Source of the DNA: Thermoleophilia bacterium
GTDB lineage: Bacteria > Actinomycetota > Thermoleophilia > BMS3ABIN01
Reading direction: 5' to 3'
Assembly: GCA_014859345.1 (NCBI GenBank)
Contig: JACUUL010000005.1
Span: forward strand, 1,072-65,071
Length of the DNA: 64,000 nucleotides
In this document: piece by piece, positions 13,773 through 28,182 of the stretch
How positions within the stretch are numbered: the first letter of the stretch is position 1
Layout: the number at the start of each line of letters is the position of its first letter
Notes under the pieces: generated by a model
Told to the model about the DNA's origin: nothing
The model's database searches: none
Seen by the model: only the letters and a program-made list of their open reading frames with translations
Program-made: the position numbers and the translations under genes

Positions 13773-14327
13773 TCAGTCCTTGTCTGTCAGGAGTTCATCC
13801 AGATAGGCCACGTGGCTGGAAAATCCGAGGGCTGAGGTATATGCCAAAGCCTCGCTCAGAGTCCGGCCCACCACATAGGAGCCGTGACCGCGGATGACGG
13901 CGGCCACGTGAGTCTGCAGCACCTGGGGGATACGGCTGTTGGTCTGTTCCGGATCCACCACAGGAACCTCCCGGAGAAACACAGAGCCTTCGAGATCCCT
14001 TGGAGCAATCATATCACTTCTGAGGGAGAGGGCAATGGCGTGTGGCGGGTGGGCATGGATGATGGCCGCGGCCGGAGTAAACCTGTAAATGAGCTGATGC
14101 AGGCCGGCATCACTGGACGCGCCGCCGGCGATGCGGTCCGGTTCTTCCCGAAGGGGGATTTCCACCAGGTCGCCCGGACCCAGGCGGCCCAGCATGGCGA
14201 AATGAGTGGTCACGATCATGTGGCCCGCGTGACGGACGCTCATGTTGCCGCCGTGGGACGTAGAAAGGCCCAGCCAGAGAAGATCTTTCCCTACCTGCTG
14301 AAATTGCTCGAAGATCAGGTCCTGCAT
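13773..14327 (-). CDS. class II aldolase/adducin-family protein (FucA/MtnB-like)
   Basis: 'LSTSHGGNMSVR' and the conserved His metal-ligand region. Confidence 0.65.
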   Translation of the reverse strand: MQDLIFEQFQQVGKDLLWLGLSTSHGGNMSVRHAGHMIVTTHFAMLGRLGPGDLVEIPLREEPDRIAGGASSDAGLHQLIYRFTPAAAIIHAHPPHAIALSLRSDMIAPRDLEGSVFLREVPVVDPEQTNSRIPQVLQTHVAAVIRGHGSYVVGRTLSEALAYTSALGFSSHVAYLDELLTDKD

Positions 14328-14342
14328 GATCGTGAACTCCGT

Positions 14343-15698
14343 TCAGCTTGACTTTCCGGCGCCGCCCGCTTCACCTGGCAGCTCCACCGTATGCACAATC
14401 CGGGCCCGGGAGCCCGCCCGGGCAAGCATGTCTGTCAAGTGCATGCGGCACGAGGGGCAGCCGGTAACCACTGCCTGGACGCCGCTGGCTGCAATCTCCT
14501 CGGCCTTGCGGAGCCCTATTTCGAGAGCCATGTCATAATGCTTGAGGCTGAAGAGGCCTCCGCCGCCGCAACAGGATTGCCCGCCCGGCATCTCGATGTA
14601 TCTTACCCCGGGGATGGAAGCGATAATCTCCCGGGGCCCGTCGGTCATGTCCAGCCCGTGGCGGAGATGGCAGGGGTCGTGCCAGGTCACGGTGATCTCG
14701 TCTTCGCCCGCCCCCTTGTCTCCCGGGGACATGCCGGCCCGGGCGCGGGCCGCGCGCTTTTCTTCAGGCCCGGCGACCGCCCCGGTCTTGGCAGGCGTGC
14801 CGTATCCGGCCATAGAGCCCGAAGCAAGGAATTGATGGATGTCCAGCACTTTGGCAGCCAGCTTCCTTGCGTCCGACCGGTCCGGGCCCAGCAGCCTCGG
14901 CAGCTCCTCCCTGAGGGACAGGGCGCAGGACGGACAGGGGGTGACGACGGCATCGGCGTCGAGAACGCCAAGAATGTGAAGATTGTTCTCGAGCATCAAG
15001 CGGGCGGCGCCTTCTTCCCCCAGCGACAGCAGTGGCATGCCGCAACACTTAAGGCCACGCGGGCTGAGGACATCGTTTCCGGATCTGTTCAGCGCCGCGA
15101 CGGCGGCGAGACCCGTTTCCGGATAAAAGGCAGTCGTACTGCAACCAGGAAAGAGGATCACCCGGGAGGCGCCTGCTTCCGGGCCGCCTGACGCGTGCGA
15201 GATCTCCGGCAACATATCCAGAAGAGATCTCCCGGGCGGCGCGGGAAGTACGCGTTTGCGGCCCGAGCGGCAATAAGGCAGGTAACTCGCGGCCGGGGCC
15301 TTTTGGTAAAGGGCAGCCTCCAGGAGGCCCGCCAGCCTTAAACCGGCTTGGGGGCGGCCGCCTGTTCCGGCCAGGGCCGCAGTGGCGGACCGGGACAGCT
15401 TCCAGAACCCGCCTTCCGCGGCCAGAAACGCTTTCGCGGCCGCGATGATCCGGTGTGGGTCGATGCCACTGGGACAAACCCCTGCGCAGGCGCGGCAGCC
15501 CAGGCAGCGGGAGAAGCGGCCGGCCAGTCCGCGGGTCAGGCCCAGACGATCATCGAGCACCGCCTCCAGGAGGCTGACGCGGCCTCTGGCCGCCAGCGAT
15601 TCGTCGCCAGAAACCTGATAGGAAGGGCATGCCTCCAGGCAGGCGCCGCAGCGGGTGCAGCGGCGGATCTGGTCCTCGATCTGTCGGGGAAGGGTCAT
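14343..15698 (-). CDS. (Fe-S)-binding oxidoreductase, GlcF/GlpC-like with two CCG domains
   Basis: N-terminal 2x[4Fe-4S] ferredoxin motifs (CTRCGACLEACP...CLGCRACAGVCP) and C-terminal CCG motifs (CCG...CPSC). Confidence 0.65.
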   Translation of the reverse strand: MTLPRQIEDQIRRCTRCGACLEACPSYQVSGDESLAARGRVSLLEAVLDDRLGLTRGLAGRFSRCLGCRACAGVCPSGIDPHRIIAAAKAFLAAEGGFWKLSRSATAALAGTGGRPQAGLRLAGLLEAALYQKAPAASYLPYCRSGRKRVLPAPPGRSLLDMLPEISHASGGPEAGASRVILFPGCSTTAFYPETGLAAVAALNRSGNDVLSPRGLKCCGMPLLSLGEEGAARLMLENNLHILGVLDADAVVTPCPSCALSLREELPRLLGPDRSDARKLAAKVLDIHQFLASGSMAGYGTPAKTGAVAGPEEKRAARARAGMSPGDKGAGEDEITVTWHDPCHLRHGLDMTDGPREIIASIPGVRYIEMPGGQSCCGGGGLFSLKHYDMALEIGLRKAEEIAASGVQAVVTGCPSCRMHLTDMLARAGSRARIVHTVELPGEAGGAGKSS

Positions 15699-16742: not shown

Positions 16743-17078
16743 CTACGTCCGCGGCTGTTTTTTTTCACGGCCAGCGAAGGGCTCCAGTGTCCACTGTCCG
16801 GTGCCTTCGTCAAGGGCAATGTCGTACATGCGGCCGTTGTGGGCGTATACGCGGAAGAAGGTCTTGCGCCGCCTGCTCTTGCTCGATTCCTCCTGCCAGG
16901 TCTTCTTGACCTGCAGGATGGTTAATTTTTTTCCCTCTATCTCGAATGAGCGGGGTCGTTCATCGCTTTTGAAGCCGGAATATGAATGCACGGTGATGGG
17001 CCGGCCTTCGCTCTTTTTTTTGGAGCCGCTGGCGCTCGCCTTTCCTCCGGCTGGCTGATGTTTCTTTTCAATGGACAT
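16743..17078 (-). CDS. hypothetical protein (basic N-terminus)
   Basis: Track ORF, 111 aa. Has its own upstream region containing a tandem direct repeat. Confidence 0.4.
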   Translation of the reverse strand: MSIEKKHQPAGGKASASGSKKKSEGRPITVHSYSGFKSDERPRSFEIEGKKLTILQVKKTWQEESSKSRRRKTFFRVYAHNGRMYDIALDEGTGQWTLEPFAGREKKQPRT

Positions 17079-17144
17079 CGATTCGATTATATGAAACTCG
17101 CGGGCGCCGTACTAAATTAATTTTAGGTTCCAGGCCCACTGCCG

Positions 17145-17176
17145 CGAAAATCGGGGACAGCGAAAATCGGGGACAT
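17145..17176. repeat. tandem direct repeat 2 x 16 nt (cgaaaatcggggacaG / cgaaaatcggggacaT)
   Basis: Read directly from the sequence. Lies 67-98 nt upstream of the 16743..17078 gene start, next to an AT-rich near-palindrome (ctaaattaattttag). Confidence 0.8.
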
Positions 17177-17364
17177 AATACAATTTTTTGGCAATCCCGG
17201 GAACGAAACTGATGTTCGCGCATTCATGTGGGCTTGCTTGGGGAGTGTGCTGTTGTCCCTGGAGTTTTCGCTCTCGGTTTTCTTCGTACTGGCCTCTTAT
17301 TGATGTTCCCTCCGCCCGCGTCGGGAGCTTTGCAAGCCGGGACTGCGTACCTGCGAATATGGAT

Positions 17365-18072
17365 TTAAATCGGAGGTTCGGCGGCGTGGCGCAGGATATA
17401 GGCCAGCTGGTCGCGCACGAGATCATCAAGCGGCAAAGCAAGTGTCCTGGCTACCGCCTTTTCGACGTCATAATCGGCCCGTTTCAGCTCGACCTTTCCA
17501 TCCTCGATCAGCGCGTAGCCGGCCCGGGGGATGCCGTCCCGGGGCTGGCCGACGCTGCCCACGTTCACCAGTAGCCGGGCACCATACTCCCTGACAAACG
17601 GCTGGTGGGAGTGGCCCGTTAGGATGATGTCGGCATCGGCCATGGCGGCCTCCGCCTCCAGCTCCGCGGCCGGGGTAGACGGCCTCAGGTACTTGAACAG
17701 GTGGTTGCTGGGGGCCGCGTGCACGGCAAAGATGCGCCCGCTGTCGATCTCCGTCTCGAGGCTGGTTGCCGGCTTGCCGATCCAATCGAGATGCTCCCGG
17801 CCGAGGATCTGCCACATATATTCCCTTGTGGCGACGGAGAGGTGCCGGAAGGCCTCGCCGCATTCGCAATCAACCCGGAAGGCGACAGCGTTGTCATGGT
17901 TGCCCCGCACGCGCAGCAGGTCAGGCTGCTGCTTCAGCAGCTCGATACAGGCGGCAGGCTCCGGCCCATAATCGACGATGTCGCCCAGGCAGATAAGAGC
18001 GTCGCGGGGCTCGTCGATGGCCCTCAGCGCGTCGATGTTGCCATGGATGTCGGAGATGACCAGGATCCTCAT
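17365..18072 (-). CDS. metallophosphoesterase (YfcE/MJ0936-like)
   Basis: 'ILVISDIHGN' and 'GDIVDYGP' metallophosphatase motifs. Confidence 0.7.
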   Translation of the reverse strand: MRILVISDIHGNIDALRAIDEPRDALICLGDIVDYGPEPAACIELLKQQPDLLRVRGNHDNAVAFRVDCECGEAFRHLSVATREYMWQILGREHLDWIGKPATSLETEIDSGRIFAVHAAPSNHLFKYLRPSTPAAELEAEAAMADADIILTGHSHQPFVREYGARLLVNVGSVGQPRDGIPRAGYALIEDGKVELKRADYDVEKAVARTLALPLDDLVRDQLAYILRHAAEPPI

Positions 18073-18257
18073 TTTGCTTCACCGGAAATCTCGCCCTCCT
18101 CGTCAAGCATGGTAATATTTTTCAGCCGCTCCCTGAGGACGCCCTCCTCCCGGGTTAAAAATTCATTGAACGTGTCATGGATTTGCGGATGAACAAAAAG
18201 GTTAAACTCGCCGGCCAGCGCCTTATCGGTCACCACCTCGTTTGCCTCCGCCCGCAC
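18069..18257 (-). CDS. small hypothetical protein (62 aa)
   Basis: Overlaps the downstream metallophosphoesterase start by 4 nt (ATGA), suggesting coupling. No recognisable domain. Confidence 0.3.
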   Translation of the reverse strand: MRAEANEVVTDKALAGEFNLFVHPQIHDTFNEFLTREEGVLRERLKNITMLDEEGEISGEAK

Positions 18258-18335
18258 GAGATGGCTGCTGTCCCGCCGCTCCTGGGCGATTTTCTTTTTT
18301 CGCGTCCAGGCATCCGGAGAAATCCGCTATTGATT

Positions 18336-19826
18336 TTACTGCGTGACGTAATGGATGATCATCTGGTCGGTGAGCCACTCCACCGGCGCCTTGTCGTCTG
18401 TGAGGATACGGCCGCCTGGCTTGACCTCCGTGACCCTGGGGATTATTTCCAGGGCCAGTTCCTGAACCTCGGGCGGCATCAGTGCCATCCTTTCTTTCAT
18501 GTCTATGGTCCGCGAGGGCTCCCTCGTGCCGATCAGCAGCAGGTTGAACGATCCGGCTCTTATGGAATAGACAGAGGGGAACACCTCCCGCATGGTGGCC
18601 CCGATGGCGTCGGCCAGCCTCTCGTCGCCGGGCGCGTGGGCGACGTTGATCATTACGGAGCCGCCCGCGTTTAAACTGTCGCGTGTTTCCTGGAAAAACT
18701 CCCTGGTGGTCAGGTAAAAGGGGATGTACGGCTGCCGGTAGGCATCCACAGCGATGAAATCATAGCTCCTGGCGCTGGTTTTCAGGAAGGGACGGCCGTC
18801 GGCCACGAAGACTTCCAGGTTGGGGAAATCCATGTCGAAGAACCGCTTTCCGGCCTCCACCACATCAGGGTCGAGCTCCACGCCGTCCACCAAGGTGTCC
18901 GGGTAGAAACGGGAGTACTGGCGCGCCATGGTGCCGGCGGCGCTGCCGATGTTGAGCACGCGGCCGGGCTCCCGGTCGTTGCCGAACCAGGGACCCACCA
19001 GGAAGTAATCCCAATAGGCCGCCGTAAAGATCTCATCCGGGTTATAGATCGAATGCACCGCCCAGCCCTCGTTGAGTTTTAGATAAGTGGTGTTTCCCCG
19101 CTTGACGACCTGTACGTATTGATAAGGTGAATCAATCTCGAACAGGGTGTCCGGGTCAGGCTTGATGGCTCCCTGGGGGATCATCAGCCCCGCCAGGATG
19201 ACCATGGGCGCGCCGGCATAAAAGCCGCGACCCAGGCCCACCGCCGATACCGCCGCCAGCAAGCCGGCAAAGAGCAGCATGGTGTTCCTGGTGCCTATCA
19301 GGGGAATCAGCAGCAGCACAGGCAGGAAGGTTCCGATGATGCTGCCTACTGTGGAAAGTGCGTACATGCCTCCGGCGACATTACCGGCGGTCTCGATGCC
19401 GGTCATCCGCAGGCGGATAGCGAACGGGGTCACCATGCCCAGGATGGTAATCGGCAGGGCGAACAGAAGCACGGTAATCGTGAACGACCCTAAAAAGGCG
19501 CCGGCTGAAACCTGCTCCAGGCCCCTGACGGCGACGCGCATTATGGGGCGCGCCACGAAGGGAAGAAGAGCGATGGTGACTGCGGCTGTCATTGTGAGTG
19601 AAAAGAGCAGCCGCGGCTCCGGGCGGCGGTCGGCCAGCTTGCCGCCCAGGTAATAGCCGAGCGTCAGATAGATAAGGATGAGCCCTATGAGATTGGCCCA
19701 GATAAACAGCGAGTTGCCGAAGAACGGGGCCAGCAGGCGGGAGCCCGCCATCTCTGTGGCCATGGTGGTCATGCCTCCGGCAAAAACCAGCGGGTATAGT
19801 ATCTTCCCCGGGGGGGTTCCGGTCAT
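18336..19826 (-). CDS. fused polytopic membrane domain + spermidine synthase-like aminopropyl/methyltransferase
   Basis: N-terminal half has ~7 TM helices. C-terminal half carries the spermidine synthase fold ('NVLNIGSAAGT', 'DFIAVDAY'). Confidence 0.6.
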   Translation of the reverse strand: MTGTPPGKILYPLVFAGGMTTMATEMAGSRLLAPFFGNSLFIWANLIGLILIYLTLGYYLGGKLADRRPEPRLLFSLTMTAAVTIALLPFVARPIMRVAVRGLEQVSAGAFLGSFTITVLLFALPITILGMVTPFAIRLRMTGIETAGNVAGGMYALSTVGSIIGTFLPVLLLIPLIGTRNTMLLFAGLLAAVSAVGLGRGFYAGAPMVILAGLMIPQGAIKPDPDTLFEIDSPYQYVQVVKRGNTTYLKLNEGWAVHSIYNPDEIFTAAYWDYFLVGPWFGNDREPGRVLNIGSAAGTMARQYSRFYPDTLVDGVELDPDVVEAGKRFFDMDFPNLEVFVADGRPFLKTSARSYDFIAVDAYRQPYIPFYLTTREFFQETRDSLNAGGSVMINVAHAPGDERLADAIGATMREVFPSVYSIRAGSFNLLLIGTREPSRTIDMKERMALMPPEVQELALEIIPRVTEVKPGGRILTDDKAPVEWLTDQMIIHYVTQ

Positions 19827-20332
19827 CTCTCCAGCCCTTTGCGGTGTCTCTCGGGCTCGGCCGCCCCGTCCCCGCTGTTGTAAGGCCTCTCCGGTTCGCC
19901 GGCCTGGCCGCCGTATCGGGCGCCCCGTCCGCCGCCTGGCCAGAAAACGATAGTGCCCATGGTGCGCCGCTCGACGGCCTGACGTAACCTCTTCTCAAGC
20001 CAGGCTCTGAATGGCCTGCGGGTCAGCGGCAGGATCACCGCCAGGCCCGCGGCATCAGTAAGGAAGCCCGGGGTCAGCAGGAGCAACGCTCCCGCCAGGA
20101 CCAGGAAGCCGTCCAAAAGCGCGTTCCCGGGCATCCGGCCCTGCCTTATTTCCTCCTGGATGCGCAGCGCAGCCTGGTATCCCTGCTGTTTTGCCAGGGC
20201 GGCTCCGGCCACGCTGACAAGCACAAGCGCGGCGAAAGTCGGCAGGTAGCCGGCCGCGGATCCGATCTGGATGATGAGCCAAAGCTCGAGCAGGGGGACT
20301 ATGATGAATAAAGCCAGGATAAAGAGGAACAT
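19823..20332 (-). CDS. fxsA: FxsA family cytoplasmic membrane protein
   Basis: 'PLLELWLIIQIGSAAG' signature. Overlaps the downstream gene by 4 nt. Confidence 0.7.
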   Translation of the reverse strand: MFLFILALFIIVPLLELWLIIQIGSAAGYLPTFAALVLVSVAGAALAKQQGYQAALRIQEEIRQGRMPGNALLDGFLVLAGALLLLTPGFLTDAAGLAVILPLTRRPFRAWLEKRLRQAVERRTMGTIVFWPGGGRGARYGGQAGEPERPYNSGDGAAEPERHRKGLER

Positions 20333-20381
20333 ATACTTATTATTTTGTATGGAGAAGAGGCTGATTACAAGTTAGCGAAGG

Positions 20382-20813
20382 TTAACGTGCTTCAGTTCCG
20401 GGACACGTCAATTCCTTTTCAATCAGTCCGCGCACCCGGATAGCCGCCGCCGCGACTTCGGCCGAGAGCCCGCCGTCCCGGGGCATGACATTTCCTACCT
20501 GCACGGCGAATACGAGGACCTCTGGATCGATTCCTTTCAGGCGGGCGCTGGTGATCAGGTAAGGCAGGCCCATGCCATGGATATTGTTGGAACGCAGATT
20601 CATGATGCCAGCCTCGTCGGGATGGAATTTGAAGATGGCGCCCGGACTGGCTCCGCAGTCGATGGCGTCCACCGCGATAACCAGGTCATAATCCAGGAAA
20701 TATCTGATCAGCGCCATGCCGGCCGTGGCCCCGGTGACAAGCTCGACTCCGGGAGGCACCGATCCGGGATCGAACCCCTCAACCACCGCCACGCCCACTC
20801 CGTCATCGGCCAT
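20382..20813 (-). CDS. hydrogenase maturation endopeptidase (HyaD/HybD/HycI family)
   Basis: 143 aa with 'DDGVGV' and 'AVDAIDCG' motifs. Last gene of the hydrogenase operon. Confidence 0.7.
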   Translation of the reverse strand: MADDGVGVAVVEGFDPGSVPPGVELVTGATAGMALIRYFLDYDLVIAVDAIDCGASPGAIFKFHPDEAGIMNLRSNNIHGMGLPYLITSARLKGIDPEVLVFAVQVGNVMPRDGGLSAEVAAAAIRVRGLIEKELTCPGTEAR

Positions 20814-20875
20814 AAGGGTGTTGCCGATGCCCAGGACGGCTATCTTGTTTGGAGGACGTATCTTCTCTCAGCCTC

Positions 20876-21538
20876 TCAGCCCTGGCTGGAAGCCCGGGAC
20901 TCCGGAGCTTTCGGCTCGCGCCAGGCGAACATCATACGCCACTCTCTCAGCACCTCCGCCATTGTCAGGTAGATATGTACGCCCACTGTGATGATGAAGG
21001 CCCACATGATCAGATAGTGATACGTGCGCATGGCGGCCAGGCCGCCCAGGACGTTCGTCATCGGCGCGAACAACCCCCTTGTCGGAGCCCATAGAGCCAG
21101 GCCCGTGAGAAATGACAGGGGGATGAGGATAAAGGCCCAGAGCAGGTAAGTGTACTTCTGCAGCGGATTGAATTTGTAGACGCTGGGATATGTGTCCCGC
21201 AGGAACAGGTAATACTTGATCGTTTCCCTGGGCTTTGATTCCCCGGTCCTCCTGAGCGGGCTGAACCACTTGTAATCGGGCCCCTTGACCCTCCCGCCCG
21301 GAGGCGCGGAGCCGGCGCCAAAGAAAGCCCAGTAGAGGCGAGTCACCGTGGTGAGGACGAAGGTCCACATGGCGATCTGGTGGATCGTGATCATGTAGCC
21401 CATGGCGCCTCCGAAAAACGGGCTGTTGATGTAGAAACCCGTGAAGACCAGCAGGATCAGAGACGTCAGGTGTACGCCGTGCATGATTATCGCGGGCAGC
21501 GGATGCTCTTCTCTTGTCGGCGGTATCCGTCCGGCCAT
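20876..21538 (-). CDS. Ni/Fe-hydrogenase b-type cytochrome subunit
   Basis: 'HPLPAIIMHGVHLTSLILLVFTGFY' HyaC/HydC signature, 4 TM helices with His ligands. Start taken at 'MAGRIP'. The coordinate is +/-1 because my hand reading of 21480-21541 disagreed with the track. Confidence 0.65.
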   Translation of the reverse strand: MAGRIPPTREEHPLPAIIMHGVHLTSLILLVFTGFYINSPFFGGAMGYMITIHQIAMWTFVLTTVTRLYWAFFGAGSAPPGGRVKGPDYKWFSPLRRTGESKPRETIKYYLFLRDTYPSVYKFNPLQKYTYLLWAFILIPLSFLTGLALWAPTRGLFAPMTNVLGGLAAMRTYHYLIMWAFIITVGVHIYLTMAEVLREWRMMFAWREPKAPESRASSQG

Positions 21539-21548
21539 GTCAGACCTC

Positions 21549-23180
21549 CTAGCGCACCTGGAACTTGAGGACCTGGTTGTTTTTCGGTTCAATCACGTGA
21601 ACCGCGCAGGCCATTCATGGGTCGAATGTGTGTACCGTTCTCAGTATTTCCAGCGGTCTGGCCGGATCGGCGACCGGAGTGCCTACCAGCGCCTCTTCCA
21701 CCGGGCCGCGCACCCCGTCGTCGTCCCGGGGCGAGAGGTTCCAGTTGGAAGGAGGCACCGCCGCATATGAGTCGATCTTCCCCCCGCTGATGCGCGCGTA
21801 GTGGGCCAGGGCTCCCCGGGAAGCGTCCCAGCCGCTGTGGCCGTCACCCTCGCGGCCGTAGTCCGGCTCCCTGTAGACCTCCTTGTTGCCGGCGCCGATA
21901 TTTTCCAGCAGCTCGTCGGCCCACCTGACGGCGTTGTCCGAGTTGACCTTGGCCTTTATGACACGGGCCGCCACCCGGCCCAGATCTGACAGGAGTATCT
22001 CCGGCTGGCCGGCCGCTCCGACAGCCGCCAGGGTGTCGTCGACCAGCTGTACCACTTCCGGCCGGCCGGTCAGATAAGCCACCAGAACCTGGGCGAGGGG
22101 GCCGACCTCCATGGGCCGGTTCTGGTCGCCGTAGCGGACCGCCTGGGTCCAGTCGTACTTGCCCTCGGGCAGCTCTTCGCCTTCCATCGGCGGCAGCTCC
22201 GTGAACTGGATCGGCTCCTGGCCCGAGTCCAACGGGTGTTTGCCGTCGCCCACGCTGTCATCGAACCAGGAAGACTTGGTGTACATCCTGGTCTCGTCCG
22301 GATGAACCTCCTGAAGCTCAAGCTGGCCATCGAAAATGGCGCCCCGGGGGAAGAGACGGTCGTAAGGATCCTGGCTCGCCTCGTCCAGGACACCCCAGGA
22401 AAGGAAATTGCCGACTCCCTGGCCGGTACCGGCCAGGTCCTCGCCGTAGATGGGCGCGATCGCCAGCAGGTCAGGAACCATGACCGTGTCTATGAAGTTC
22501 TTGACCTCTTCCATGCGCGACTTGTAGAAGGCGATCTCGTCCAGCGCAGGAAGCTGAGTGACCCCGCCGGGTATGTAGTGGTGGATCATTGGGAAGCGGC
22601 CGCCCAGTATCGCGTTGCACTCATTGGCCTTCGACTGAATGTCGATGGACTGCAGGTAATGCGCGGTGAGCTCGAGATCGAGCTCCGGCGGCAGCTTGTA
22701 TGCGGGATGATCCCAGTACATGTTCGCGAACGGTCCCAGCTGTCCGGAATCCACAACCGCCCTTACCTGGTCCTGCACCGCCTGCAACGAAGGAGTTTCC
22801 GGACTGGCATTAAGGGCGTTGGGAACGTTGACATAATCGAAAGCGTTGAGCACATAGAACCAGAGTATGTGGTCGTAGCCGATCTGCGCCGCCTCGGTCA
22901 TGTTGCGGATGAGTCGGGCGTTGTCGTCCACCGTCTCCATACCCAGGGCGGTCTCCACCGCCCGTACTGAGTTAAAAGCATGCGGGTTGGGACAGACGCC
23001 GCAGATGCGCTGGGCGAACTGCCAGATGCTTTTGGGGTCGCGCCCTTTCATGAAAATCTCGAAGCCGCGGAAGAGGGTGGCGGTGTTCCAGGCGTCTGTG
23101 ATAACGCCGTCCTCCACCTGGCAGGTAATGCGAAGATGGCCTTCGATGCGGGTTATTGGGTCGATGACTACTTTCGGCAT
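21549..23180 (-). CDS. [NiFeSe] hydrogenase large subunit; selenoprotein with in-frame UGA (Sec) at 21615-21617
   Basis: N-terminal 'RIEGH' and 'RICGVC' Ni-binding motif. The track ORF stops after '...RTVHTFDP'. That stop is TGA, and continued reading gives U-MACAVHVIEPKNNQVLKFQVR then TAG (21549-21551). 'DPUxxCxxH' is the [NiFeSe] C-terminal Ni-ligand motif (DPCxxCxxH in [NiFe] enzymes). Confidence 0.85.
21586..21603 (-). ncRNA. candidate SECIS hairpin in the hydrogenase large-subunit mRNA
   Basis: UGA-AUGGCCUGCGC(11 nt)-GGUUCA-CGUGAU-UGAACC. Perfect 6-bp stem, 6-nt loop. Confidence 0.55.
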
Positions 23181-23224
23181 CTATAACCTCCTATTTCCAG
23201 AGGACAAAACCGTTCCTGCCACGT

Positions 23225-24328
23225 TCATTCTTCTGTCTCTTCCTTGCCCGCCACCGGGCCTCCCCTGCCGAACCGTCCCTTGGCGACCTGTCCCACTGCA
23301 TGGGCGCCAATGCCGATGGCCGTGGCCGCGCCCAGGGTCACGCCGATCTGGGTGGGCGTGATGTCGCCCGGCAGCCGGATTCCCGATTCCTTGTCGTAAA
23401 ACGGAGTCAGCTTGTCCCAGAAATCCGGCTCGGAACAACCGATGCAGGGACCGGCCTCAACCGGCCAGCTTATCTCACCGTTCCACTTGGTCTTGGGGCA
23501 GGGGGCATGGGTGACCGGACCCTTGCAGCCCACTTTGTACAGGCACCACCGTTTTTCCGATGCCTCGTCACCGAAGCGCTCCACAAATCTGCCGTTGTCA
23601 AAATGGCCGCGGCGCTCGCAGTTGTCGTGCACGGTCTCGTCGAAAAGGAACAACGGGCGGCCAAAAGAATCCAGCTCGGGCAGCTCGTTGTGCACCAGCA
23701 CATAGGCCAGAATGGCGATAGTGTCCTCGGCGTTGCCGGGGCAGCGCGGCGAGTTGATCACGGTGACGTCGGACAGCCCGGCGTCCTGGCGCAAATAGTC
23801 GGCCACTCCCTTGGCGCCGGTGGGATTTGGCGCAGCCGCCTGGATGTTGCCGTAGCAGGCGCAGGAGCCGATGGCAATAGTCGCGTTGGCTCTCTGGTAA
23901 GCCTCCAGCACTATATCGGCGGCGGTCCGGCCGTGGATGGTGATAGCCTCGGGTATCTCGGTGGCGACGGCCCCTTCGACGATATAAAAGAAATCATCGG
24001 TGGCAAGCGTGTCCTGAAAGCTTTGCTCAGCCTCGTCTCCGGCGGGCGCCATAACCGCCTCGTGATAATCGAGGGAGATCTGCTGCAGGATAAGCTGGGC
24101 CGGAGTCGGCTTGCGACTCTGAAGCAGGTTGACCGAACAGCCCAGGCATTCCTGGAAGAGGGACCAGATTACCCGCGGTCTCATGGCTACCTCCTCAAAG
24201 GCCTGGGCGACTCGCGGAGCCGCCAGCGGTCCGCTCAGGCCTATGAGGGCCGCCAGGGTGCCGCAGCTTTTGAGAAAATCCCGTCGCGACAATCCTGGAA
24301 AAATGGACAGTTCCCGGTGATCTTCCAT
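23225..24328 (-). CDS. [NiFe(Se)] hydrogenase small subunit with twin-arginine signal
   Basis: 'SRRDFLK' Tat motif and Fe-S cluster cysteine patterns. ATG at 24328 is preceded by GGGAGG; the track ORF has a 27-aa upstream extension. Confidence 0.8.
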   Translation of the reverse strand: MEDHRELSIFPGLSRRDFLKSCGTLAALIGLSGPLAAPRVAQAFEEVAMRPRVIWSLFQECLGCSVNLLQSRKPTPAQLILQQISLDYHEAVMAPAGDEAEQSFQDTLATDDFFYIVEGAVATEIPEAITIHGRTAADIVLEAYQRANATIAIGSCACYGNIQAAAPNPTGAKGVADYLRQDAGLSDVTVINSPRCPGNAEDTIAILAYVLVHNELPELDSFGRPLFLFDETVHDNCERRGHFDNGRFVERFGDEASEKRWCLYKVGCKGPVTHAPCPKTKWNGEISWPVEAGPCIGCSEPDFWDKLTPFYDKESGIRLPGDITPTQIGVTLGAATAIGIGAHAVGQVAKGRFGRGGPVAGKEETEE

Positions 24329-24592
24329 ATCCTGCCTCCCTGCCTCGTTTTTTTGCGGCATGCCAGCAAGTTTCTTAATCCATTCTGTGCCGGTGGGGTC
24401 ATTGGCCATGTTTTACCCCGCCGGCTTACTTTTTTCCGCCAAGCCCTGTCTTTAATCTTTTCGCAATCATATCACGTTCTTCTTTTCTGGCTCTTCATTC
24501 CTGTTTCCTGTTTTTCCATCCGGTTCCGGTGATAACTTTGCCGGCGGGACAGGCGAGGCTCAGCGGCGGTAGAATAAACGGACATTGCGGAG

Positions 24593-26326
24593 GTGGAAAT
24601 GGACGCGGCCAGGTTGAAAGAATTGCTTGGGCGGATAGACGGCCGGGGCTACAAGGCTTACCGGGAGATTTCCGGCTCATATGCTCTTCCGGGGTTTACT
24701 CTTTTCATAGATTACGTGCAGGGCGATCCGTTCGCGGCCCCGTCGAGGCTGCGGGCCGCCGTGGAGCAGCCGTTGGCTGGTTTCGACCGTTCTCTTTACA
24801 GCAGCCCGACGCGGCGGATGGCTCTGGAAGACTACCTTGCGCGCGCCTTCGACCGGGCGATCCGCAGCCATGTGAGGGGCGGCCGCGGCACCGGGAAATC
24901 CGGTCTGATAGCTGTGGACGCCGGCGGCCAGGAGATCCTTGAGCGCACAGCCGCCGTGGTGAATGACCGATTCGTGGAAGCGCGCTTCATGGCCGGGCTG
25001 CCGGCCTCCGGCCGGCGCTGCCTCGGAAGGGAAGCGGCCGCCATGCTGCTTGAGGAGGTTCCGAGGGTCGTGAGGCAGGCCCTGTTCTACGAGGCTCTGG
25101 ATGCCAGGGAGCTTTCCGCCCATATCGAAGCCGCCGAGGACCAGGAATGGCTGCGGGAGCGCCTTCAGGAAATGAGGCTGGTGGCTTTCGTGGCGGACGG
25201 TTCCGTGTTGCCCCGGGCCAGCGGCGTCAGCGACCTGCCCTTGAAAGGCGGCCAGGTAGTGAGATTCGTCTCTCCTCCCGAGCTGAAGTTGGAGGTTTCA
25301 CTTCCAAATCGCGGGCGGATAACCGGCATGGGCATCCCTGAAGGGGTGACCCTGGTGGCGGGAGGCGGATATCACGGCAAGTCAACGCTGCTGGAAGCGC
25401 TTATGCGGGGGGTCTGCTGCCACATCCCCGGCGACGGCCGCGAACTGGTCGTGGCCCGGGCCGATGCCGTCAAGATCCGGGCCGAGGATGGCCGGCGGGT
25501 GGAAAAGGTCAACATCAGCCCCTTTATCTCCAACCTGCCCTTCGGCGTTGACACGGTGGCTTTTTCCACGGAGAACGCCAGCGGCAGCACCTCTCAGGCG
25601 GCCAACATCGTCGAGGCGCTGGAGGCCGGCGCCCGGGTGCTGCTGATGGATGAGGACACCTCGGCCACGAACTTCATGATCAGGGACGAGCTCATGCAGC
25701 GGCTCATCCCCAAGGAGAAAGAGCCGATCACGCCATATATCGATCAGGTACAAAATCTTCACAGGGAATACTCCGTATCAACGATCCTGGTGATGGGGGG
25801 CTCGGGGGACTATTTCGAAGTCGTCGATAACGTGATTGCCATGGATAACTATCTGCCCCGGATGGTCACGGAGCAGGCCAGGCGCATCGCCGGCGAGCGC
25901 CGGGATGCCCGGTCCCGCGAGGGCGGCGAAAGGTTTGGCCCCCTGGTCCGGCGGGCGCCCCTGGCCGAAAGCATCGACCCTTTGCGAGGCGGCAAGGAGC
26001 GGGTCCTGGCCAGGGAACCAGGTTTCCTGTTATTTGGCCGGCAGACAGTCGACCTGAGCCAGGTCGAGCAGTTGTTGGACATCAGCCAGACCCGGGCCAT
26101 TGGCGACATGATGTCCTATGCCCGGCGGCGGGGATATTTCGACGGCCGCACGGCTCTGCCCCAGGCGATCACGCGAGTCTTCGATGAAATCGCTCGCGAG
26201 GGCTTGGATGTGATATCTTCTTTCCCCGGCGCCGATCATGCCCTGCCCAGGCCTTTCGAGGTGGCCGCCGCGCTGAACCGCCTGCGGAGCCTGAAAGTAA
26301 AACAGATCCGTGAGAAGGAAATGTAA
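24593..26326 (+). CDS. predicted ABC-class ATPase (COG3044/PF09818-like)
   Basis: 577 aa. Walker A-like 'GGGYHGKST' and Walker B-like 'VLLMDEDTSATNF'. The N-terminal architecture matches the 'predicted ATPase of the ABC class' family. Confidence 0.5.
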   Translation: MEMDAARLKELLGRIDGRGYKAYREISGSYALPGFTLFIDYVQGDPFAAPSRLRAAVEQPLAGFDRSLYSSPTRRMALEDYLARAFDRAIRSHVRGGRGTGKSGLIAVDAGGQEILERTAAVVNDRFVEARFMAGLPASGRRCLGREAAAMLLEEVPRVVRQALFYEALDARELSAHIEAAEDQEWLRERLQEMRLVAFVADGSVLPRASGVSDLPLKGGQVVRFVSPPELKLEVSLPNRGRITGMGIPEGVTLVAGGGYHGKSTLLEALMRGVCCHIPGDGRELVVARADAVKIRAEDGRRVEKVNISPFISNLPFGVDTVAFSTENASGSTSQAANIVEALEAGARVLLMDEDTSATNFMIRDELMQRLIPKEKEPITPYIDQVQNLHREYSVSTILVMGGSGDYFEVVDNVIAMDNYLPRMVTEQARRIAGERRDARSREGGERFGPLVRRAPLAESIDPLRGGKERVLAREPGFLLFGRQTVDLSQVEQLLDISQTRAIGDMMSYARRRGYFDGRTALPQAITRVFDEIAREGLDVISSFPGADHALPRPFEVAAALNRLRSLKVKQIREKEM

Positions 26327-26519
26327 TTCTCGCCCGCGGTTTTGTACCTTTTCTCAGAATAAACACCAGGGAACCGGACACCAGGGTGCAGAAACGACGT
26401 GGATTAAAAAAATTAACCGGAAATGCCAGAACGATTCCGGTAAAATATTGTTTACGTGTAAGACGAACGGATTTGCATGGTCCGCGACGCATCGGGAACG
26501 TGTGAATCCAACAGGAGGG

Positions 26520-27218
26520 ATGGATATGGAACGGGAAGACACCGGCAACTGGACTCTGGAGCAAAAAGAAGAAAAGAGCATCGATGTGCTGAAAAATGCT
26601 CTGGAGCGCTTTGACGGCCGGATTGCAACGACTTTCACAGGGGGGAAGGACTCCCTGACGGTTCTGCATCTTCTTAAACGCGTTGGTGACGGCAAGGTAA
26701 AAGTGCCGGTACTGAACCTCGACACCACCGTCAAGTTCAGGAAAGTCATCGAGTTTCGTGACCACATGGCTCGTGAATGGGATCTGGACCTGGTCATCGC
26801 CACCAACCATGAAGGGCTTAAAAAAATCAACATCGCCGTGGATCACGAGGAGTGCTGTCTGGTGATGAAGGCCCAGGCAATAGACATGGCGATGGAGAAA
26901 CATGAATGGAAAGCCCTTGTGACAGGTGTTCGTTGGGACGAGCAGCCAGCCCGGATAACAGAGGAATATTTTTCCGAGCGGCCCGGACACACCCGCGTTC
27001 AGCCCATACTGCATTTCAGCGAGCTGGACATCTGGTCCTATATCGACAAGTATCAGCTCCCTTATTGTGAGCTTTATGATCAGGGATACCGCAGTCTCGG
27101 GTGCGAGCCCTGCACGGTAAAGAGCGTCCGCCCCCGCGGTGACGGGCCCGAGCGCGAAGGACGGGCCCAGGAGAAAGAGCAGATCATGGCCCAGTTGAGG
27201 GATCTCGGATACTTCTAG
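26520..27218 (+). CDS. APS/PAPS reductase family protein with [4Fe-4S] cysteines (CysH-like)
   Basis: PP-loop 'FTGGKDS', 'VTGVRWDE', a Cys pair 'EECC' and C-terminal 'GYRSLGCEPCT' (the CC...CxxC cluster motif of APS reductases). ATG at 26520 with AGGAGG upstream; the track ORF starts earlier at 26310. Confidence 0.6.
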   Translation: MDMEREDTGNWTLEQKEEKSIDVLKNALERFDGRIATTFTGGKDSLTVLHLLKRVGDGKVKVPVLNLDTTVKFRKVIEFRDHMAREWDLDLVIATNHEGLKKINIAVDHEECCLVMKAQAIDMAMEKHEWKALVTGVRWDEQPARITEEYFSERPGHTRVQPILHFSELDIWSYIDKYQLPYCELYDQGYRSLGCEPCTVKSVRPRGDGPEREGRAQEKEQIMAQLRDLGYF

Positions 27219-27365
27219 CTCCGGCTCCACTTCCCGTCGGACATGATTTAAAGGAGCGGGTCCGCGGCGTTCGCCTTCGGGGAAACAGACTCCTGTCCCT
27301 GGTTCGGGTCCAGGCCGGGCCCTGAGCAACCAGCGAGCCGGGAAAGACTCAGGCAGGCAAAAAGC

Positions 27366-27578
27366 ATGTCAAAATCCCATCAGAATCTCATAATCGTATG
27401 GTCTGTAGTTTGCGCCTCGGGCCTCGGCATATTCCTGTTTCAGATCTTCACGCCGGCGGTGCCGCCGCAGACGGGATATGATTCCGGGAAGCTGGCGTTG
27501 GCCATTGGCTTTTTTTTCCTTTTGTGGAGCGTTCCAGCCGGCCTGATCTGGGCAGCCGGCCGCCGGCAGAAGGAGTAG
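27366..27578 (+). CDS. small membrane protein (2 TM)
   Basis: Track ORF, 70 aa, two hydrophobic helices. Confidence 0.35.
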   Translation: MSKSHQNLIIVWSVVCASGLGIFLFQIFTPAVPPQTGYDSGKLALAIGFFFLLWSVPAGLIWAAGRRQKE

Positions 27579-27582
27579 GCGC

Positions 27583-28182
27583 TTGAAGGACTTAATGCAG
27601 AATCATCCCAAAATCACCACTCTGGCGATGATCGGCCTCGCCTCCCTCGTGGTGCTTTTTCTGTACTACCTGTCCATACAGGAGCCATCGCTCCCTTCCT
27701 CCTCCGAGCCGATCATAGCGCACGGCAGGTCCGGACCGGTGGCGACCGGAGAGGGAATTGGCTCTGGCGCCGGCAGTCCGTCATTTTTCCCCCAGGGAAT
27801 CAGGGATTTGGACTTTGAGTCTCTTCTCGATGATGCCGTCTCCGGCGGCTGGATTCTGGAAAACGTGATATACACCGATATCGACGGGAACGGCACGGAG
27901 GAGGCGGTGGTGTTGCTGCGTGGCAAAGGTGACAGCCGTCCCTTGAACTGGTCTCTTTACGGGCTCCGGGGCGACCTCGTCGAGCTTTTTTATGAACGCA
28001 GCAATGTAGCCCACGGAGAATTGACGGCCGCGGGCCCGCAGCTGGTGGAGCGTGAAGGCGTTTTCGCGGAAGGCGATGCCCCCTGCTGTCCCTCATCCAT
28101 GAAGGAAACCCATTACGTATGGAAGGGCGACTGGTTGGTGGTATCCAGGATCGAGACCGGCCCGGTATCGCCAACGCCATAA
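27583..28182 (+). CDS. LppP/LprE-like membrane-anchored protein
   Basis: N-terminal TM/signal anchor, then 'YTDIDGNGTEEAVV' and a 'CCPS' motif reminiscent of LppP/LprE lipoproteins. Confidence 0.4.
   Translation: MKDLMQNHPKITTLAMIGLASLVVLFLYYLSIQEPSLPSSSEPIIAHGRSGPVATGEGIGSGAGSPSFFPQGIRDLDFESLLDDAVSGGWILENVIYTDIDGNGTEEAVVLLRGKGDSRPLNWSLYGLRGDLVELFYERSNVAHGELTAAGPQLVEREGVFAEGDAPCCPSSMKETHYVWKGDWLVVSRIETGPVSPTP

Follow-up and report, generated by a model that had tools for sequence, protein, structure and literature searches.

Results

The hydrogenase operon and its in-frame UGA

The DNA analysed here, called the window in the following, is a stretch of 64,000 nucleotides (nt) of contig JACUUL010000005.1 (positions 1,072 to 65,071 of the forward strand) from the Thermoleophilia bacterium assembly GCA_014859345.1. 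Its minus strand carries, at 24409..20382, an operon with the genes for a hydrogenase small subunit, a hydrogenase large subunit, a b-type cytochrome and a maturation endopeptidase (Table 1), and the end of the large-subunit gene is the subject of this study. This gene's open reading frame (ORF) (23180..21615), whose ATG at 23180 is preceded by an AGGAGG ribosome-binding site, encodes 521 amino acids (aa) with the C-terminal end RTVHTFDP and is followed by a TGA. Past this triplet the frame continues with ATG GCC TGC GCG GTT CAC GTG ATT GAA CCG and translates as MACAVHVIEPKNNQVLKFQVR until it closes at a TAG (21551..21549), with 21 codons after the UGA and a read-through precursor of 543 aa. 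An earlier annotation that a model had made from the letters of the window, here termed the original prediction, had described a TGA after HTFDP and a frame running on to TAG, and both are present at these positions.

Table 1. Features of the hydrogenase operon, with coordinates counted from the first nucleotide of the window
Feature	Coordinates	Strand	Evidence or remark
[NiFeSe]-type hydrogenase large subunit gene, UGA predicted to be read through	21549..23180	minus	Sequence, profile and PDB alignments
In-frame UGA, predicted selenocysteine codon (residue 522)	21615..21617	minus	First Cys of DPCxxCxxH, terminal Ni ligand
SECIS-like hairpin GGUUCA-CGUGAU-UGAACC	21586..21603	minus	11 nt past the UGA, within codons Ala526-Pro532; loop G-U at positions 2-3
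Putative C-terminal propeptide VIEPKNNQVLKFQVR and TAG stop	21549..21596	minus	Predicted removal after His528 once the metal site is assembled
Hydrogenase small subunit gene	23225..24409	minus	TIGR00391, 315 bits (cutoff 179.5); PF14720 and PF01058 match
b-type cytochrome membrane subunit gene, 220 aa	20876..21538	minus	PF01292, 88 bits (cutoff 30.1)
Hydrogenase maturation endopeptidase gene, 143 aa	20382..20813	minus	TIGR00072, 86.7 bits (cutoff 47.45); PF01750, 57.9 bits (cutoff 23)

GenBank entry MBE0428554.1, listed as 'nickel-dependent hydrogenase large subunit [Thermoleophilia bacterium]' and derived from a 66.7-kb contig of a metagenome-assembled genome (MAG), is identical to the 521-aa product, and the public record thus takes the TGA as the end of the gene. 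TGA terminates 12 of the 22 genes with full family matches in the window and is the commonest stop codon there, so that UGA is otherwise an ordinary stop and its recoding would be a local event.

For the comparison with families and structures, a Cys was put in place of the stop in the 543-residue product, and the resulting PDB alignments span residues 3-542. The metal site predicted from them consists of Cys60 and Cys63 (RICGVCPNPH) together with selenocysteine (Sec) 522 and Cys525 (DPUMACAVH). The residues after the TGA align without gaps with the C-terminal motif DPCxxCxxH and the propeptide of the [NiFe] hydrogenase precursor of Desulfovibrio fructosovorans (...EILRTVHTFDP[U]-MACAVH-VIEPKNNQVLKFQV in the window and ...EILRTVHAFDPC-IACGVH-VIEPETNEILKFKV in D. 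fructosovorans, which at the motif itself gives FDP[U]-MACAVH and FDPC-IACGVH). When aligned with the [NiFeSe] structures 1CC1, 4KL8 and 5JSH (D. baculatum, D. vulgaris Hildenborough), the UGA falls on the X that denotes Sec in ...DPXLGCAVH, in line with the motif DPUxxCxxH named in the original prediction. The terminal Ni ligand at this position is the one that is usually replaced by Sec (PMC8020662). Taken together with the conservation described below, the TGA of the large-subunit gene almost certainly codes for Sec at the nickel site, as judged from the sequence.

Proteolytic removal of a C-terminal tail is an established step in the maturation of [NiFe] hydrogenases. The crystallised mature chains in the PDB end at the aligned His, which makes the last 15 residues of the window protein a likely propeptide cut off by an endopeptidase, and we predict that the tail is cleaved after His528 by the co-encoded protease. 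This agrees with the removable extension postulated initially; the evidence for it lies in the ends of the mature chains and in the alignment with the D. fructosovorans precursor tail, the cleavage itself being predicted.

Conservation of the UGA among homologues

A search of 5.8 billion proteins returned as its best 120 matches sequences of 59-100% identity from Thermoleophilia, Aquicultor and Coriobacteriia MAGs and from metagenomes, all of which (120/120) end at the same ...H[TS][FY]D[PA] (...FDP or ...FDA), one residue before the UGA. A second protein search with a Coriobacteriales member as the query, aimed at cultivated Coriobacteriia, yielded environmental sequences only. At the nucleotide level, 80 genome loci were fetched via two N-terminal peptide motifs, a choice that is blind to the C-terminus and to the hairpin. 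A TGA stands at the site in all 47 Sec-type sequences (46 of these loci and the window), and in each of them it is followed by an in-frame [MI][AG]C[AS]VHVIEP, about 12 further codons and a stop. The 46 Sec-type loci share 44-79% identity with the window protein, and nearly all are labelled as Actinomycetota or one of its classes. TGC or TGT was found at the site in 32 more distant homologues from Bacteroidota, Ignavibacteria, Acidobacteriota, Planctomycetota, Nitrospirota and others. All 46 relatives share the TGA, the frame behind it and the 18-nt hairpin, and it is this recurrence that lifts the observation above chance.

Ten of the homologues (P0047, P0049, P0050, P0054, P0057, P0058, P0061, P0063, P0081 and P0086) bear a Thr/Pro/Ser-rich low-complexity extension of 40-60 residues at the N-terminus of the large subunit, e.g. 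MATPTSTPTSTPTTPVPS; P0054 (Coriobacteriia) is the only one of these with a taxon label. One would not expect such an extension on a subunit whose export depends on being carried along by its small partner, and wrong start-codon calls could also explain it.

The hairpin downstream of the UGA

A perfect hairpin exactly 11 nt after the UGA had been proposed as a selenocysteine insertion sequence (SECIS), and it is indeed present, in a single copy in the window, with a seventh C-G pair possible at 21604/21585. Its interpretation as a SECIS gains weight from the relatives, in which it is nucleotide-invariant among Sec-type and decayed among Cys-type genes. The 18 nt of the hairpin are identical in 45 of the 47 Sec-type sequences, and the stretch xCG GTT CAC GTG ATT GAA occupies codons +4 to +9 unchanged in the 46 unique Sec-type sequences with one exception (L012). 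The neighbouring, equally conserved codons for Asp, Pro, Ala and Cys make use of all synonyms, and elsewhere in the same genes GTT, ATT and GAA are rare, with shares of 8.6%, 8.8% and 24% among their synonymous codons. All six stem pairs are intact at the homologous position in 46/47 Sec-type sequences as opposed to 1/32 Cys-type sequences. The consensus structure computed by RNAalifold among the relatives is the 6-bp hairpin alone. A longer lower stem (GGCCUG...CAGGUC) suggested by the minimum-free-energy fold was discarded, as its position is not conserved in the relatives and RNAalifold drops it.

The distance from the UGA to the apical loop is 17 nt, and a range of 16-37 nt has been given for bacterial SECIS elements (PMC10778597). 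The best-known point of reference is the SECIS of E. coli fdhF, whose sequence we confirmed in 5419 of 5426 E. coli genomes. Both elements lie within the ORF behind an 11-nt spacer, start their stem with GGUU and display G-U at positions 2-3 of the loop. They differ in the size of the loop, which has 6 nt (CGUGAU) in the window and 4 nt (GGUC) in fdhF, and in the calculated energy of the hairpin alone, which is more stable in the window (-8.1 kcal/mol for the 20-nt, 7-bp version of the window, -4.2 kcal/mol for the 17-nt fdhF element). The codon and conservation data support the view that the hairpin is under selection as RNA, with a geometry that fits a SelB-dependent element.

Two Sec-type sequences deviate. 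In an Aquicultor MAG (L012:4425-4470), a loop G is changed to T, which replaces Val with Leu and abolishes the loop G-U. A sequence labelled Deltaproteobacteria (L039:2990-3060) reads FDA-U-IACAVHVIEQQ, has the last stem base changed and continues into an unrelated tail; it may represent a chimeric contig or a decaying gene.

Operon composition and neighbouring genes

The small subunit, the cytochrome b and the endopeptidase all score above their Pfam thresholds, and the operon has the traits of a membrane-bound respiratory uptake [NiFe] hydrogenase of group 1, namely a small subunit with a twin-arginine translocation (TAT) signal, an operon-encoded cytochrome b and a dedicated C-terminal endopeptidase. 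The TAT signal of the small subunit (SRRDFLK, aa 40-70, TIGR01409) is complemented by a hydrophobic C-terminal anchor. The cytochrome b gene, which begins 10 nt past the stop of the large subunit, reached 101.6 bits against TIGR02125, below the cutoff of 121.5. All 88 Sec-type loci with enough downstream DNA have a cytochrome b gene behind that of the large subunit, and none of 27 Cys-type loci does.

In its longest form (MANDPTGTEW...), the small-subunit ORF places 36 residues ahead of the twin-arginine motif, and Met 28 (MEDHRELSIFPGLSRRDFLK) may be the true start; the finding is unaffected by this choice. The hyp maturation genes (hypA-F) are not adjacent to the hydrogenase operon (window 17000-28000). 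Two genes lie past the protease on the same strand, one for a membrane protein of the FxsA family (20332..19823) and one for a fused MFS/spermidine synthase (19826..18336). Divergently from the operon, a gene on the plus strand (24593-26326) encodes a 577-aa protein that has no NCBIfam match and contains the domains ABC_N, ABC_ATPase (PF09818) and MRB1590_C. A scan of the window for TGA triplets between coding-like stretches brought up one further candidate (15698..14343, minus strand), a GlpC/LdhH-like Fe-S oxidoreductase continued by an in-frame ORF of 184 aa (14327..13773, minus strand). GlpC-like proteins are a known selenoprotein family. The candidate was rejected and the region interpreted as two separate genes, because the match of the upstream protein to its family profiles extends over their whole length and the ORF behind it is a complete class II aldolase with an ATG of its own.

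Iron-sulfur ligands and canopy residue

Alignment of the small subunit with 1H2A_S revealed a proximal cluster with the ordinary four Cys (ECLGC, GSC, RCPGN) rather than the six-Cys oxygen-tolerant type, and a distal cluster with His and three Cys. In the medial motif CPKTKWNGEISWPVEAGPCIGC (...SWPVEAGPCIGC), a Pro follows the Trp at the position of the fourth ligand. The original prediction had asked whether the proximal-cluster ligands suit the type. The proximal cluster is ordinary; as a whole, the Fe-S ligands differ from the usual set of known [NiFeSe] enzymes, in which a fourth Cys stands in place of this medial Pro. As far as the work cited in PMC8020662 goes, the residue after this Trp is Pro in enzymes with a [3Fe-4S] and Cys in enzymes with a [4Fe-4S] cluster, with the Pro238Cys conversion of the D. 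fructosovorans enzyme as the example. The Pro occurs in the window and 17 relatives, and Cys in 75 other Sec-type and 27 Cys-type loci. In a neighbour-joining tree, the 18 Pro sequences, which come from metagenomes and from Thermoleophilia-like MAGs, group as a single clade nested among the Cys sequences, and the Pro predicts a [3Fe-4S] medial cluster for this subclade.

The canopy residue, verified to correspond to Asp118 of Hyd-1, is Asp in the window clade (Y-D103-HILWFY); half of the Sec-type lineages have Ser at this position, as do nearly all Cys-type ones. [NiFeSe] enzymes have been described from sulfate reducers and methanogens with three [4Fe-4S] clusters and a canopy Ser (PMC8020662, PMC10779653). 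The window enzyme is therefore predicted to combine Sec with three traits of standard [NiFe] hydrogenases, the Pro at the medial ligand position, the canopy Asp and the four-Cys proximal cluster.

Family assignment

The best NCBIfam family for the large subunit is NF033181 ('NiFeSe_hydrog'), which matches end to end (residues 1-540 against 1-507 of 507) with 477.6 bits, under its cutoff of 600. This cutoff is reached by Sec-type relatives in which the hairpin is identical and a cytochrome b lies downstream (L042 606, L087 628, L109 602 and L192 744 bits), other Actinomycetota members tested are likewise below it (L030 431, L041 467 bits), and the family also takes in Cys-type proteins (L049 710, L053 653 bits). 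The very name of the family implies that its curators are aware of Sec-type relatives. All cutoffs of the HysAB-specific profiles (NF045518 / NF045520 / NF045519) were missed: 341 vs 780 bits for the large subunit (NF045518), 217 vs 470 for the small subunit and 39.7 vs 190 for the protease. The fourth medial Cys and the canopy Ser of HysAB are absent from the window enzyme as well. The assignment to the [NiFeSe] class made in the original prediction is hence retained with regard to the UGA at the Sec position, the CxxH frame and the hairpin, and not with regard to the HysA type.

Distribution and history of the Sec/SECIS module

Scanning metagenomes for a TGA followed after 11 nt by the exact 18-mer yielded 119 stretches, all of which are C-termini of hydrogenase large subunits; as these loci were chosen by the hairpin, its invariance among them is given by construction, its exclusivity to this gene family is not. 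The carriers are diverse and include U-LGCGVH, U-IGCAVH, U-IACAVH and others. Of the fetched genome loci with the Sec trait, almost all are labelled as Actinomycetota (Thermoleophilia, Aquicultor, Coriobacteriia), and metagenomes with the trait come from sediment, groundwater and soil. A neighbour-joining tree of 137 large subunits, rooted at its midpoint, has Sec-type lineages throughout and a Cys-type clade nested among them.

One Cys-type sequence from a Bacteroidota-like MAG (L063:4159-4215) has kept all six stem pairs (GGTTCATCTGATTGAACC), and three others from such MAGs (L053, L066, L071) have kept five at the homologous position. These stems look like fossil SECIS elements left after conversion of Sec to Cys, a reading that fits the position of the Cys clade among Sec lineages. 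The simplest explanation would be one old Sec/SECIS module with later Sec-to-Cys reversions, which we propose tentatively, given a tree that lacks support values and a set of metagenome loci that had been selected by the hairpin. An independent origin of Sec in Actinomycetota was also considered and rejected, in view of the identical hairpin in distant lineages that pass NF033181 and of the nested Cys-type clade with its decayed hairpins.

Discussion

The sequence features described above, their conservation and the homology of every part of the operon were observed here, and they make it very probable that the large subunit is a [NiFeSe]-type selenoprotein and the operon encodes a periplasm-facing, membrane-bound, H2-oxidising hydrogenase. 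In the mechanism that we propose, a SelB-type elongation factor with Sec-tRNA(Sec) would bind the hairpin 11 nt past the UGA, Sec would be incorporated as residue 522 and translation would go on for 21 codons. Sec522 would then, together with Cys525, Cys60 and Cys63, hold the Ni-Fe centre and serve as a terminal Ni ligand, as in known [NiFeSe] enzymes. Once the metal is inserted, the co-encoded endopeptidase would cut off the 15-residue tail after His528, the dimer would be exported via the TAT signal of the small subunit, and three Fe-S clusters would relay the electrons to the cytochrome b, which presumably hands them on to a quinone. Homology is what suggests Sec insertion, the cleavage at His528, the [3Fe-4S] cluster, the catalytic direction and the quinone acceptor.

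Several observations weigh against this interpretation. A tRNA scan (window and 46 loci), NCBIfam profiles applied to the 20 large ORFs of the window and scans for SelA, SelD and SelB signature motifs (window and fetched DNA) revealed no tRNA-Sec, selA, selB or selD in the 64-kb window or the fetched flanks. Sec insertion is for this reason a step that we infer; Sec decoding is known in Actinobacteria, e.g. in Rubrobacter xylanophilus (PMC1794560). Taken on its own, the hairpin counts for little and might be due to chance: among the 1942 TGA triplets in the window, 22 (1.1%) are followed at a distance of 9-13 nt by a perfect hairpin with 6 bp or more. The 76-nt region folds no better than shuffled sequence (z = -0.82), so that stability provides no evidence, and no Rfam SECIS model matched: the whole window gave none at gathering thresholds, and the region of the site gave two chance-level matches at E values of up to 10. 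The stem is a perfect 6-7 bp and the bulged U of the E. coli element is absent from it. As the hairpin never varies, RNAalifold detected no covariation, which leaves the pairing as such unproven. Furthermore, the large subunit remains under the cutoff of every curated [NiFeSe] family, and the phylogeny consists of one midpoint-rooted neighbour-joining tree without support values.

That the TGA is a real stop, leaving a truncated, non-functional or pseudogenised protein of 521 residues, or a sequencing or assembly error for TGC, accords with the annotation in GenBank (MBE0428554.1) and other sources and with the rank of TGA as the commonest stop codon in the window. An error is excluded by the same TGA in 47/47 Sec-type sequences and in the 119 metagenome stretches. 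A real stop would deprive the protein of the cleavage-site His and of two of its four Ni-Fe ligands; the 21 downstream codons, however, are conserved as protein and vary synonymously outside the hairpin, which indicates that they are translated, and the full operon is kept, including a protease whose only substrate is the tail. We therefore regard this explanation as extremely unlikely. The gene might alternatively be split, with termination at the UGA and a restart at the adjacent AUG (UGA-AUG), and the 21-residue peptide MACAVHVIEP... might supply Cys525 in trans. An ATG does follow the UGA directly in the window and in 44 of the 46 unique Sec-type sequences, but the codon is ATT, ATA, ATC, CTC, CTG or GTG (Ile/Leu/Val) in two genome loci and about half of the metagenome stretches, and I, L, V or M stands there in Cys-type homologues, so that Met appears as ordinary variation. 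Such a restart would also leave the Ni without its fourth ligand and the hairpin frozen at 11 nt from the UGA without an explanation, and we consider it scarcely credible.

A read-through without selenium, in which Cys or Trp enters by near-cognate or suppressor decoding and the hairpin is a generic stimulator, is in line with the missing Sec machinery in the window and the fetched flanks, and the residue inserted is not readable from the sequence alone. A single mutation from TGA to TGC or TGT would, however, yield Cys at full efficiency, and the retention of TGA down to 44% protein identity argues for a residue that only UGA encodes. The position is Sec in the solved [NiFeSe] structures, spacing and loop match SelB-dependent elements, and relatives with the same hairpin pass the curated NCBI family 'NiFeSe_hydrog', all of which renders selenium-free decoding very unlikely. 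It would be conceivable in principle that the 18 nt are kept for a DNA-level reason rather than as an RNA signal, for instance as the site of a dimeric regulator, given that the core TCACGTGA is a perfect DNA palindrome and the stem pairing lacks support from covariation. Against a regulator site stands the association with the TGA, as the element occurs only together with this codon and always 11 nt away from it (46/47 Sec-type vs 1/32 Cys-type), at the 3' end of the coding region just upstream of the next operon gene, and at one position of one gene family in 119/119 metagenome stretches. We give this possibility hardly any chance, and the decoding of the UGA as Sec with the help of the hairpin is the explanation that we maintain.

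All particulars that the original prediction gave of the sequence proved correct, and its [NiFeSe] interpretation is supported. The basic finding is that the window encodes a member of a known enzyme class that has been mis-annotated as truncated. MBE0428554.1 and its closest 120 entries are recorded at about 520 residues, with half of the metal site gone, and motif-based surveys miss or mis-score them. What appears to be new, as judged from sequence comparison, is a cytochrome-b-linked Sec radiation with an invariant SECIS and, within it, a subclade that has a canopy Asp and for which a [3Fe-4S] cluster is predicted; in the literature searched on [NiFeSe] hydrogenases in Actinobacteria, Thermoleophilia or Coriobacteriia, no description of this enzyme group was found. 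It is possible, though we lean slightly towards doubt, that the window subclade of 18 sequences represents a natural [NiFeSe] enzyme on a standard [NiFe] chassis ([3Fe-4S] medial cluster, canopy Asp, four-Cys proximal cluster and cytochrome b anchor) inside a larger, largely actinobacterial cytochrome-b-linked Sec radiation that is listed in databases as truncated and is undescribed in the literature searched. If this is true, sulfate reducers and methanogens are not the only hosts of [NiFeSe] hydrogenases, three [4Fe-4S] clusters are not obligatory for these enzymes, and what selenium does and what the electron relay does would already have been separated in nature. Sec has been engineered into E. 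coli Hyd-1 to ask what selenium alone does (PMC8020662). The window clade would be a natural enzyme that joins Sec with the second-sphere and relay features of standard [NiFe] hydrogenases, and sister clades, in which nothing but the medial ligand or the canopy residue is different, would provide a ready series for comparison. The Sec trait extends across broad lineages, mostly labelled Actinomycetota, and is always coupled to a cytochrome b, in contrast to the sulfate reducers and methanogens covered in PMC8020662. An 18-nt SECIS that is invariant across proteins of about 45% identity moreover constitutes an unusually clean case of RNA-level selection within coding sequence and a simple search key for the enzyme class.

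Among the hydrogenase groups distinguished in HydDB, group 1i, a putative respiratory uptake type of Coriobacteria, was split from group 1a, which lists [NiFeSe] variants (PMC5037454), and a cluster of small subunit, large subunit, cytochrome b and maturation protease has been reported for Anaerosomatales isolates (PMC9686372). The window enzyme resembles group 1i in its Actinomycetota host and the same layout of the gene cluster, and differs from it in that the HydDB table gives [NiFeSe] variants only under 1a, 3a and 3c (PMC5037454). Placing the window enzyme in group 1i would be a guess from taxonomy and operon structure alone.

The HysAB enzymes of Desulfomicrobium baculatum and D. vulgaris Hildenborough (1CC1, 4KL8, 2WPN, 5JSH; HydDB group 1a) share with the window enzyme the in-frame UGA with a hairpin shortly downstream inside the ORF, the TAT-exported small subunit and the C-terminal tail cut by a dedicated protease. 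Their motif reads DPU-LGC-AVH instead of DPU-MAC-AVH, and the tail VLHAESGK of the Hildenborough enzyme implies that its SECIS must differ in sequence. HysAB is described as passing electrons to the soluble cytochrome c3 and has three [4Fe-4S] clusters and a canopy Ser (PMC8020662), whereas in the window a cytochrome b gene follows the large subunit and the medial Pro and the canopy Asp take the place of these features. Against the window protein, [NiFeSe] large subunits score only 233-256 bits, in contrast to 400-422 bits for the closest standard [NiFe] enzymes. The latter, from D. fructosovorans, D. gigas and D. vulgaris Miyazaki (1FRF, 2FRV, 1H2A; HydDB group 1b), are the top-scoring solved structures for both subunits. 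Their terminal Ni ligand is Cys (TGC/TGT) and not Sec, and the compared chains are named periplasmic hydrogenases; on the other hand, they have nearly the same C-terminal region and propeptide as the window protein and, in common with it, the medial W-P ([3Fe-4S]), the canopy Asp and the four-Cys proximal cluster.

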